The position numbers and the translations under genes are program-made. Below, piece by piece: positions 21,893-22,439 of a stretch of DNA of 64,000 nt. A model generated the notes under the pieces. That model did no database searches and was not told the origin of the DNA. It saw only the letters and a list, made by a program, of their open reading frames with translations. Source of the DNA: a virus. Within the stretch, counting starts at the first letter, position 1; every line of letters begins with the position of its first letter. The DNA lies in IMG/VR virus record IMGVR_UViG_3300024269_000023; one strand, 5' to 3'.

Positions 21893-22439
21893 CGCTAGCT
21901 CAGCAGGTTTCAGAGCACCGCCCTTTTCACACAGGAGAAGAAAGTATTTTCCCAGGAGGTGAATTAAGTGTTAAACACTCATTTCCAAGGTGAAATTACT
22001 GAACTCCAAGTTGCCGAATCGTTTTTGACATTGGGGTATCAAGTGTGTAAGCCTTTGGTATCTGATAGTCGCTATGACTTTATCGTTGATATCAACCATC
22101 AGTTATATCGTATTCAAGTAAAGACATCATCATTGAGTGAAGATGAAGATTATATTGAGTTTAAGACTCAATCCTCTCATACAAATACTCAAAAGACAGT
22201 ATATCAATCTTATTCTGCGGATGACATTGATTATTTTGCTACAATGCATAATCATCAGTGCTATCTTGTTCCAGTTGATAAAGCTGGTAGTCGTTCTTGT
22301 AGATTGCGTTTAAAGCCTACAAAGAATGGTCAGACTAAGAATATCAATTTCGCAAAAGATTTCAAACTTGAAGATACTTTCATCGAATGACTGAAAAAGG
22401 CGGGTGTCCTGGGTTCGAATCCCAGGCGGCGCACCAAGT
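21893..22439 (+). tRNA. split tRNA (probably Lys-TTT) interrupted in the anticodon loop by a ~475-nt ORF-bearing insertion
   Basis: 5' part GCGCCGC-TA-GCTC..GAGC-A-CCGCC-CTTTT (21893-21927); 3' part AA-GGCGG-GTGTC-CTGGG-TTCGAAT-CCCAG-GCGGCGC-A-CCA (22398-22439); acceptor and AC stems complement perfectly across the gap. Confidence 0.6.
21968..22390 (+). CDS. nuclease-like ORF inside the tRNA insertion (homing or splicing endonuclease-like)
   Basis: GTG after GGAGG; motif SRYDFIVDINHQLYRIQVK; paralog at 17142. Confidence 0.55.
   Translation: MLNTHFQGEITELQVAESFLTLGYQVCKPLVSDSRYDFIVDINHQLYRIQVKTSSLSEDEDYIEFKTQSSHTNTQKTVYQSYSADDIDYFATMHNHQCYLVPVDKAGSRSCRLRLKPTKNGQTKNINFAKDFKLEDTFIE

Follow-up and report, generated by a model that had tools for sequence, protein, structure and literature searches.

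The 64,000-nt stretch of viral DNA analyzed here (IMG/VR virus record IMGVR_UViG_3300024269_000023; hereafter the window, whose coordinates are used throughout) contains an island of 44 tRNA genes, one of which, encoding tRNA-Lys(UUU), is split in its anticodon loop by an insert that is almost entirely taken up by an endonuclease gene. The island otherwise holds a near-complete set of tRNAs and the split gene is its sole tRNA-Lys(UUU), as the UUU anticodon is absent from the other 43 tRNA genes found by ARAGORN, confirming what a first-pass annotation made from the DNA letters had stated. No close DNA relatives of the window were found among deposited phages.

Anatomy of the split tRNA-Lys(UUU) gene

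When introns are allowed, ARAGORN reports a single tRNA at 21889-22436 with a 469-nt intron, a gene that it misses in its default mode, and joining the two exons in silico (21889-21927 and 22397-22436) gives a tRNA-Lys(ttt) with a score of 124. The 5' exon (21889-21927; all parts of the gene lie on the plus strand) comprises the acceptor strand GCGCCGC (21889-21895), the D arm (21898-21916), the 5' strand of the anticodon stem, CCGCC (21918-21922), and then C32 (21923), U33 (21924) and the anticodon TTT (21925-21927), and its arms are recovered in the minimum free energy (MFE) fold. The 3' exon (22397-22436) supplies A37 (22397), A38 (22398), the 3' strand of the anticodon stem, GGCGG (22399-22403), a variable loop of 5 nt, a canonical T arm (CTGGG TTCGAAT CCCAG, 22409-22425), the acceptor strand GCGGCGC (22426-22432), A73 (22433) and an encoded CCA (22434-22436). 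All of the stems are intact in the window copy, which shows neither the broken stems nor the mutated invariant bases of a pseudogene.

The insertion itself (21928-22396) begins with CACACAGG and ends with GACTGAAA. The same tRNA is present without interruption in a syntenic relative, L086 (IMGVR_UViG_3300024272_000400), whose neighboring segments align with the window at 79-96% identity. The L086 allele has no real mismatch with the joined exons over its full length, and both exons are mismatch-free in blastn, the 5' exon corresponding to its left half and the 3' exon to its right half. Because this intronless allele gives exact breakpoints (between 21927 and 21928 and between 22396 and 22397), the insertion site between nucleotides 36 and 37 is unambiguous, and since so close a relative has identical exons without the intron, the insertion is possibly recent. 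The two tRNA halves of the first-pass annotation are thus real, though its coordinates (21893-22439) were a few bases off, its 475-nt insertion is 469 nt by the L086 breakpoints, and the site that it termed the canonical intron position is 36/37 rather than the 37/38 that is canonical in archaea and eukaryotes.

The insert is nearly filled by an open reading frame (ORF) of 140 aa (21968-22390, plus strand) with a GTG start, 7 nt ahead of which a Shine-Dalgarno-like AGGAGG (21955-21960, plus strand) can be read directly in the sequence. Non-coding DNA is thereby limited to 40 nt ahead of the ORF and 6 nt behind it (46 nt in total), so the flanks are as scant as was first noted, if not exactly the ~45 and ~8 nt then given. 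Residues 3-134 of the ORF match PF11645 (PDDEXK_5) with 109.7 bits (cut-off 26.1; E 1.5e-31), phmmer aligns it with I-Ssp6803I (2OST) at E 1.9e-8, and the family profile retrieves 2OST from the PDB (E 7.8e-14) with no other credible match, the fold being that of this solved member. Three residues that are invariant in 18 homologues, D37, Q50 and K52, align with YD...QVK of 2OST, and a catalytic role for the D...(Q/E)xK residues is taken from the family literature. To judge from these matches, the insert ORF is a DNA homing endonuclease of the I-Ssp6803I/PF11645 family and not an EndA-type RNA enzyme, and this family is the one that is already known to target tRNA anticodon loops.

The EndA family (PF01974) matched neither the ORF at E ≤ 1 nor any of the scanned ORFs of the 64-kb window at E ≤ 0.001, and kinship of the ORF with EndA was rejected as a likeness at the level of the fold only, the profile search of the PDB having yielded 2OST alone. 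Hence the nuclease-like character proposed in the first-pass annotation and its resemblance to PD-(D/E)xK enzymes are upheld, while the suggested resemblance to tRNA-intron endonucleases is not; the profile comparison that it had recommended places the ORF in a DNA homing endonuclease family, one half of the outcome that it had said would speak against splicing. It had also singled out 17142-17549 (plus strand) as a paralogue, correctly (PF11645, E 3.5e-16). This second copy is a free-standing gene outside any tRNA, not part of an intron; it ends 8 nt upstream of a tRNA-Tyr gene and is conserved in L086.

Related inserts and their anticodon stalk

Metagenomes from gut and rumen yield many homologues of the ORF, which form 196 clusters at E ≤ 0.001. 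Of 59 loci on viral contigs, 46 have the ORF within a split tRNA according to ARAGORN, inspection adds six such loci (L020/L021, L022, L033, L039, L064), and in the genome collection eight of the nine best matches are on phage-like contigs with the same arrangement, which were binned into metagenome-assembled genomes of Ruminococcus, Acutalibacteraceae and the like and two of which are 176-182 kb long. About 60 related phage loci in all have an ORF-only insertion, usually of 458-490 nt, the longer inserts carrying longer endonucleases, and after careful registration every insertion is found at 36/37. Splicing in silico gives a canonical tRNA in 47/47 cases (ARAGORN), and the mean score of the joined tRNAs is 117.1 versus 114.7 for 289 intact neighbors. 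At least 17 anticodons are targeted, namely those of Lys (UUU), Arg (UCU, ACG), Thr (UGU, AGU), Asn (GUU), Ile (GAU, UAU), Met (CAU), Ser (GCU), Glu (UUC), Ala (UGC), Gln (UUG), Pro (UGG), Gly (UCC) and Asp (GUC) tRNAs and of a CUA amber suppressor. Some phage loci have three or more insertions (for example L037 and the L162/L165 contig), and related phages differ in whether they have the element at all. The genome-collection search found no case in an essential chromosomal tRNA, and the distant homologues on true bacterial chromosomes are free-standing, some of them beside tRNA genes.

The suppressor target is at L175 (1424-2262), where a CUA tRNA is interrupted at 36/37. The intron, which is 764 nt long and belongs to the same class, has UAG at its 3' end, and its product is a 248-aa endonuclease extended at the C-terminus by a zinc-ribbon/helix-turn-helix; if the phage has no other suppressor, it would have to splice this one. 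In-frame TAG codons are found within the intron endonuclease ORF at L009/L061, L029, L053, L055 and L057. The window itself has two tandem tRNAs with a CUA anticodon (20451-20600; amber suppressors), which suggest that TAG is recoded in part of its genome.

The inserts have in common that pairing of the intron ends extends the anticodon stem into a stalk of 23-38 bp. If G.U is admitted, the intron of every class closes with a triplet that reads as the anticodon's reverse complement (AAA/UUU, AUG/CAU, AGA/UCU, ACA/UGU, AGC/GUU and UAG/CUA are examples). The pairing continues on one side with U33 and A37 and on the other with the opening bases of the intron, whose partners immediately precede the anti-anticodon. 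In the window the top strand of helix 1, UUUUCA (21924-21929; U33, the anticodon and intron positions +1 and +2), pairs in both the MFE and the centroid fold with UGAAAA (22392-22397; two intron bases, the anti-anticodon AAA at 22394-22396 and A37), and over 17 classes the anti-anticodon covaries with the anticodon. Helix 2 is a 12-bp helix between GAAAGUAUUUUC (21940-21951) and GAAGAUACUUUC (22370-22381), the latter within the last codons of the ORF (all four strands are read on the plus strand). The 548-nt precursor thus folds, in MFE and centroid structures alike, into the four tRNA arms, the 6-bp helix, two 2-bp segments and the 12-bp helix (z = -5.9). In the class as a whole the small internal loop is followed by a second helix of 6-16 bp, bringing the total to 23-38 inter-strand pairs per locus, and compensatory variants of helix 2 are seen in L012 (GAAAATA/TATTTTC) and L013 (GATAAAA/TTTTATC).

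Counted over 33 distinct stalks, positions 33:37, 35, 36, +1 and +2 are paired in 33/33 and position 34 in 32/33, positions +3 to +6 are paired in 18-29, and 32.38 is paired in eight, which does not differ from ordinary tRNAs; each of the paired positions is represented by more than one type of pair. The anticodon pairing value is 0.99, compared with a maximum of 0.81 in 2000 permutations of the partners, and the duplex energy of the intron ends averages -18.1 kcal/mol within a locus as against -7.7 kcal/mol between different loci. The two junctions are on opposite strands of a regular helix and 3 bp apart, the anticodon forming a 3' overhang on the exon side. The flanks of the free-standing paralogue, read by eye and not folded, are without a stalk, and the stalk therefore appears to be tied to residence inside a tRNA. 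An origin of the inverted anti-anticodon at the DNA level, through target-site duplication, sticky-end insertion or excision, or strand invasion, was considered and does not fit the sequence, because a duplication would give a direct repeat and the overhangs at the right junction would be identical rather than complementary. From the comparison of these loci, selection at the RNA level is the sole explanation of the pairing that we can support.

Pairing between anticodon and intron is a property of archaeal and eukaryal pre-tRNAs, and an intron of the archaeal type, with a bulge-helix-bulge cut by an EndA-like enzyme and its exons joined by RtcB, would account for it. The motif consists of two 3-nt bulges with 4 bp between them, and the first-pass annotation had advised folding the junctions to look for it, but in both the MFE and the centroid fold they lie instead in an unbroken 6-bp helix and, since there are no 3-nt bulges at the junctions, this is not a bulge-helix-bulge. 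Given also the 36/37 site and the results with PF01974 and the PDB described above, we regard this explanation as largely refuted and its probability as very low.

A group I intron whose core overlaps the ORF fares no better. It would be in keeping with the location of I-Ssp6803I, the only studied relative of the ORF, in a tRNA-fMet group I intron (PMC1995217), with the U that ends the 5' exon in the window, and with GAAAG at 21940-21944, which could pair with CUUUU as P1. However, a search of 21700-22700 with Rfam at E ≤ 10 found no group I (RF00028), group II or small self-cleaving ribozyme, and RF00028 and ribozyme searches of 13 related loci found nothing. These searches have power because the same kind of small-region search detects a group I intron in L003 (1393-1809), where a 336-nt ORF-less intron at 34/35 of tRNA-Leu(UAA) scores 24.5 bits with RF00028 (E 3e-4). 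The terminal bases are also wrong, the last intron base in the window being A and not G and, class-wide, the complement of nucleotide 34 (A, C, G or U), and the 5' exon terminates in C or G where the tRNA is of the Glu or Arg(ACG) class. Moreover, bacterial tRNA group I introns with a homing-endonuclease gene (HEG) are all >500 nt (PMC13011429).

There is no space here for the ~200 nt or more of structured RNA of a group I intron, as the first-pass annotation had recognized, with only 46 nt non-coding in the window and, across the class, 5' untranslated regions (UTRs) of about 0-46 nt (the shortest, 0-3 nt, being probably due to the use of another start codon) and 3' UTRs of 1-37 nt (≤23 nt in almost all loci). 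An RNAalifold consensus of 10 Lys-type precursors places 20/20 compensatory pairs in the tRNA arms or the stalk and none inside the ORF, where few pairs are predicted and these never covary. A group I or group II intron was therefore rejected, and we consider the group I reading to be largely refuted and its probability close to negligible.

Near the junctions many loci (among them L029, L051, L058, L059 and L163-L170) share the motif CAAAYT at intron positions +5 to +10, opposite which RCATTG lies just 5' of the 3' strand of the stalk, about 8 to 12 nt before the 3' junction; with its CA/TG pairs and small asymmetric loop, this could be a binding site for a protein. The conservation of these two motifs at a fixed distance from the junctions in many sublineages would also be expected of a small ribozyme of an unrecognized kind, made from the stalk and its internal loops or from overlapping coding sequence, that splices or cleaves itself. 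The tandem G.A/A.G mismatches of the window stalk point in the same direction, and Rfam covers described families only. Known small self-cleaving ribozymes were nonetheless rejected, none having been found at E ≤ 10. The junctions are within a regular Watson-Crick helix, a setting unfavorable to in-line attack, the internal loops vary between sublineages, the ORF shows no covarying structure, and the non-coding nucleotides number only ~30-65 in total. We therefore think a self-acting RNA of this kind quite unlikely.

We found no description in the literature of a class of ORF-only, stalked tRNA inserts. PF11645 genes have been reported inside group I introns of bacterial tRNAs (PMC13011429, PMC1995217) and, in Jug phages, as 'stand-alone' PDDEXK_5 genes with tRNAs unmentioned (PMC12880540). 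The novelty of the element is that of a HEG-bearing intervening sequence in a tRNA from which the ribozyme was lost, or in which it was never present, and which has gained an anticodon-pairing stalk.

Maturation or loss of the interrupted tRNA

Both alternatives of the first-pass annotation, protein-dependent splicing and a tRNA disrupted by a HEG, survive this analysis as the two live explanations. To our knowledge, the tRNA introns of bacteria and phages are thought to be self-splicing and protein-catalyzed tRNA splicing is considered a hallmark of archaea and eukaryotes. The reading that we prefer, and in which our confidence is evenly balanced, is that the insert is a mobile, ribozyme-less intron that a protein nuclease excises, the exons then being rejoined by the RNA ligase of the phage. 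On this proposal, the endonuclease gene would invade tRNA genes at 36/37 by homing, and in the transcript the stalk would keep the tRNA body folded and present both junctions to a protein endonuclease that cuts the two strands there. The intron, which would also be the endonuclease mRNA, would be released, and the nick in the anticodon loop would be closed by the ATP-dependent RNA ligase of the phage, with the ends healed by a kinase and a phosphoesterase if needed, for instance if a cyclic phosphate were left, yielding a functional tRNA-Lys(UUU). The broader proposal, to which we assign a likelihood just short of even, is that gut and rumen jumbo phages mature many tRNAs by protein-only splicing, in which a nuclease cuts at the 3-bp helix of anticodon and anti-anticodon and an ATP-dependent ligase reseals the product.

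Splicing is supported by the continuity of the stalk through the junctions in essentially every locus, where it is fitted to each anticodon. The joined tRNAs, which score no worse than their intact neighbors, point the same way, as do the loci with several insertions, the suppressor among the targets and the standing of the split gene as the island's sole tRNA-Lys(UUU), AAA accounting for 189 of the 593 Lys codons counted. Short introns with neither an ORF nor a ribozyme are also found in tRNAs of the same phage group and of Lak phages (PMC6784885); as they have no ORF they cannot spread by homing, and they suggest that these phages may have a general cut-and-seal route. The candidate enzymes are encoded in the window, as the first-pass annotation had noted and as Pfam, PHROG and PDB matches confirm for an RNA ligase, a Pnkp-like kinase, phosphoesterases and a Thg1-like gene. 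The putative sealing enzyme is the ATP-dependent RNA ligase at 43147-44574 (plus strand), which matches PHROG 968 'RNA ligase' (E 5e-60) and Naegleria Rnl (5COT; E 1.4e-4) and has a PHA02142 OB domain; a single-protein scan for its co-occurrence with intron-bearing contigs gave two close relatives only. A polynucleotide-kinase-like P-loop protein (55403-55948, plus strand; Pfam AAA_33, PHROG 505 'polynucleotide kinase') and a metallophosphoesterase (55945-56547, plus strand; Pfam Metallophos_2, PHROG 547 'phosphoesterase') form a possible end-healing pair at 55403-56547.

The identity of the nuclease is the weak point of this mechanism, the candidates being host RNase III and the intron-encoded enzyme. 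A stalk of such length would certainly be recognized by host RNase III, but its 2-nt stagger does not agree with the 3-bp offset of the junctions, and we rejected it as the precise splicing nuclease, leaving it a candidate only for imprecise release of the intron. As to the intron-encoded enzyme, I-Ssp6803I reportedly cleaves its DNA target at both edges of the anticodon triplet to leave 3-nt 3' overhangs (a result credited to Bonocora and Shub in 2001), a geometry that would match the RNA junctions, and the left part of the stalk is identical in sequence to the left half-site in the DNA. That the intron's own PD-(D/E)xK enzyme doubles as the RNA splicing endonuclease is nevertheless a proposal that we consider improbable.

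Several observations weigh against splicing. We know of no bacterium or phage in which tRNAs are spliced by proteins alone, nor of any RNA-cleaving member of the I-Ssp6803I family, for which cleavage of double-stranded or A-form RNA would be unprecedented. A cut by RNase III would, given its 2-nt stagger, leave an anticodon loop of 8 or 6 nt. Furthermore, among the Lys codons of the window genes AAG, which is read by an intact tRNA-Lys(CUU), is about twice as frequent as AAA.

The mobility of the element bears on the same question. Between L040 and L041, L016 and L019, and L010 and L011 similarity is confined to the tRNA and its intron, the flanks being unrelated, and close kin of the window intron (86-96% protein identity) reside in different tRNA-Lys bodies with compensatory stem changes. 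The introns of L044 and L046 are 99% identical and their tRNA-Asn exons 72% identical. The insert thus appears to behave as a homing element, cleavage of the intronless gene being suggested by the distribution of alleles. Since movement of the intron outpaces divergence of the exons, exons that are intact do not prove long-term selection and may reflect recent invasion only. Decay is also seen at a minority of loci, in the split tRNAs of L014/L015, L047, L035 and L038 and in four alleles with near-identical introns, two of which are changed at the invariant T54 or A58. At L056 (about 1480-1990) the stalk is intact and the tRNA body has been lost, the endonuclease gene being flanked by the remnant of a Thr-type anticodon stem-loop. 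This element lies directly between two other tRNA genes, its own acceptor, D and T arms being absent.

Much of this would fit a tRNA that is never spliced, an explanation that we take seriously even though we think it somewhat improbable. According to it the HEG has destroyed the tRNA and spreads despite the cost, host tRNAs or other tRNAs of the phage covering the loss, and the stalk serves the element itself, either as part of a tRNA scaffold that carries a stable and correctly processed endonuclease mRNA or as an RNase III site that releases this mRNA. The membership of the ORF in a DNA homing-endonuclease family, the intronless L086 allele with identical exons, the movement of the intron between diverged tRNA genes at L044/L046, the decayed split tRNAs with the bodiless stalk of L056, the changes at T54 or A58 among near-identical alleles, the use of AAG rather than AAA as the main Lys codon, and the failure to find any case in an essential chromosomal tRNA all agree with it. 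It does not, however, readily explain unbroken pairing through U33:A37, the anticodon and +1/+2 across 17 anticodons, and it leaves unexplained why about 85-90% of the interrupted tRNAs are canonical even though their endonucleases have diverged to 35-60% identity. The loci with three or more insertions, the CUA suppressor among the targets and the apparently stalk-free flanks of the paralogue also speak against it.

Whichever of the two is correct, the inserts form a large and well-defined class that is free of ribozymes and keeps to a single site (36/37) of phage tRNAs, with a stalk that resembles the anticodon-intron helix of archaea and eukaryotes. The question is a testable one, since nature provides dozens of variants as well as alleles with and without the intron, and the same genome encodes a putative ligase and possible healing enzymes. 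Should the tRNAs prove to be spliced, this would be a new RNA-processing pathway for bacteria and phages, possibly involving a homing endonuclease with a second job on RNA, and protein-only maturation would for the first time extend ribozyme-free tRNA splicing beyond archaea and eukaryotes. If they are not, a HEG has dispensed with its intron by riding in a tRNA scaffold, in phages that readily lose the tRNAs of their arrays. In addition, phage tRNA repertoires, including the suppressors of recoded phages, are undercounted because standard tRNA finders miss these genes.

Neighboring features and comparison with known systems

Besides the ribozyme-less class, this phage group has introns of other types. 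Identical 49-nt ORF-less inserts, which resemble an acceptor-type minihelix and end in ACCA, are found in the tRNA-Leu(UAA) genes of L029 (401-536) and L057 (840-975); they recall the 'tRNA within a tRNA' of Lak phages and could be excised by RNase P-type and 3'-end processing together with a ligase. A tRNA-Gly(UCC) of L031 (2867-2971) has a 31-nt ORF-less hairpin insert at 36/37, and in its best register U33 pairs with A38 and the junctions are offset by 2 bp, which is the geometry of RNase III. The 711-nt intron at 34/35 of a tRNA-Leu(UAA) in L010 (428-1227) encodes an HNH endonuclease and ends in G after an exon ending in U, and it had no RF00028 match in the multi-locus search. In the window, a tRNA-Leu-like gene at 16669-16807, called SeC(tca) by ARAGORN, has a 42-nt insert in the anticodon region and a loop, CAGTAAA, without U33; its homologue in L086 (4435-4573) reads as a tRNA-Leu(UAA) whose insert is 52 nt long and lies between direct repeats of CGGAC, and the insert shares an 'ATAGTGT' motif with the 75-nt tRNA inserts of L077 and L105. 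A tRNA-like gene at 6073-6146 abuts a tRNA-Ala and is given a 2-base anticodon '(ag)' by ARAGORN, and several tRNAs have A34 anticodons (AGA, AGU, AAG, ACG) that would need inosine or unusual decoding (the coordinates listed with these observations are 6073-6146, 10926-11013, 11221-11297 and 6829-6915).

Other RNA features of the window were also noted. A terminator-like 10-bp hairpin followed by ACTTTTCCCT (21846-21872) stops 16 nt short of the split tRNA on its 5' side. Shortly after the 3' end of this tRNA, in a region structured over about 22440-22600 and not aligned with L086, 88 nt (22506-22593) match the 3' part of OLE RNA (RF01071) with 53.4 bits (gathering score 50). A full-length ROOL RNA (RF03087, 327.8 bits) lies within the tRNA island at 16047-16660, a region 84% identical to L086 where they align, and L007 likewise has a ROOL RNA beside tRNAs. 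A drum RNA (RF02958, 78.1 bits) lies at 11343-11453 between tRNA-Thr and tRNA-Val. The GC-rich and ORF-free ~270 nt at 16830-17100, between the tRNA-Leu-like gene and the endonuclease paralogue, look highly structured and match no Rfam family at its gathering score. Among the protein genes, an 826-aa ORF (30777-33257) with a major-vault-protein shoulder (PF11978, E 1.7e-24) and repeat (PF17795) is unusual in a phage, and 45726-54063 is a cluster for NAD+ salvage and turnover that encodes an isochorismatase-type nicotinamidase, a phosphoribosyltransferase, Sir2, a NAPRTase/NAMPT-like protein, NAD synthase, NADAR and a cytidylyltransferase-like adenylyltransferase.

Among known systems, the closest by endonuclease family are bacterial group I introns. 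The Synechocystis tRNA-fMet intron is 655 nt long and encodes I-Ssp6803I in a 150-aa ORF (PMC1995217), PF11645-bearing introns are also found in tRNA-Arg(UCU) (PMC13011429), and those of tRNA-fMet are placed at 33/34 by Nakagawa 2026, 36/37 being a possible alternative for the Synechocystis intron. The window insert resembles them in its endonuclease family, its anticodon-loop target and its homing mobility. Unlike these introns, which have a full ribozyme, it has 469 nt, a 140-aa ORF and no group I core, it lacks the terminal G, and its 3' end is paired with the anticodon in a stalk. Intronless HEGs of the T4 SegB type, in or beside phage tRNA arrays, spread by homing, according to PMC8421152, which cites PMC2330249 for this. 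The paralogue at 17142 is of this free-standing kind, and the 'genes in pieces' that HEG insertion produces are comparable, but the insert lies inside an anticodon loop rather than between genes and has evolved pairing with the anticodon. The tRNAs of Lak megaphages have short, 'enigmatic' ORF-less introns that are tRNA- or minihelix-like (Devoto 2019, PMC6784885). These too are inserts in phage tRNA anticodon loops that do not look like ribozymes and whose mechanism is unexplained, but unlike them the present class bears an ORF and forms a stalk.

Archaeal bulge-helix-bulge introns, which are processed by EndA and RtcB and some of which carry HEGs, are similarly ribozyme-free inserts in a stable RNA that pair with the anticodon, and excision and sealing would be protein-borne in both. 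The window insert differs from them in having no bulge-helix-bulge, in its position at 36/37 instead of 37/38, in its bacterial-phage setting and in that no EndA homologue was detected in the searches described above, and in contrast to the RtcB route the ATP-dependent phage ligase joins a 3'-OH to a 5'-phosphate. The intervening sequences of bacterial 23S rRNA, some of which carry an ORF, are excised by RNase III and the rRNA, although left in pieces, still works. The tRNA inserts share their architecture, as in every locus a hairpin loop of a stable RNA is replaced by an insert whose ends form a long stalk, but a tRNA nicked in its anticodon loop would need to be resealed, and its 3-bp junction offset contrasts with the 2-nt stagger of RNase III. 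Finally, the Pnkp/Rnl1 system of phage T4 repairs a break made in an anticodon loop, classically that of tRNA-Lys(UUU), by an anticodon nuclease of the host. The kinase, phosphoesterase and RNA ligase encoded in the window could reseal an anticodon-loop break in the same manner, except that what serves T4 in the repair of damage would here be used for the routine maturation of a tRNA.

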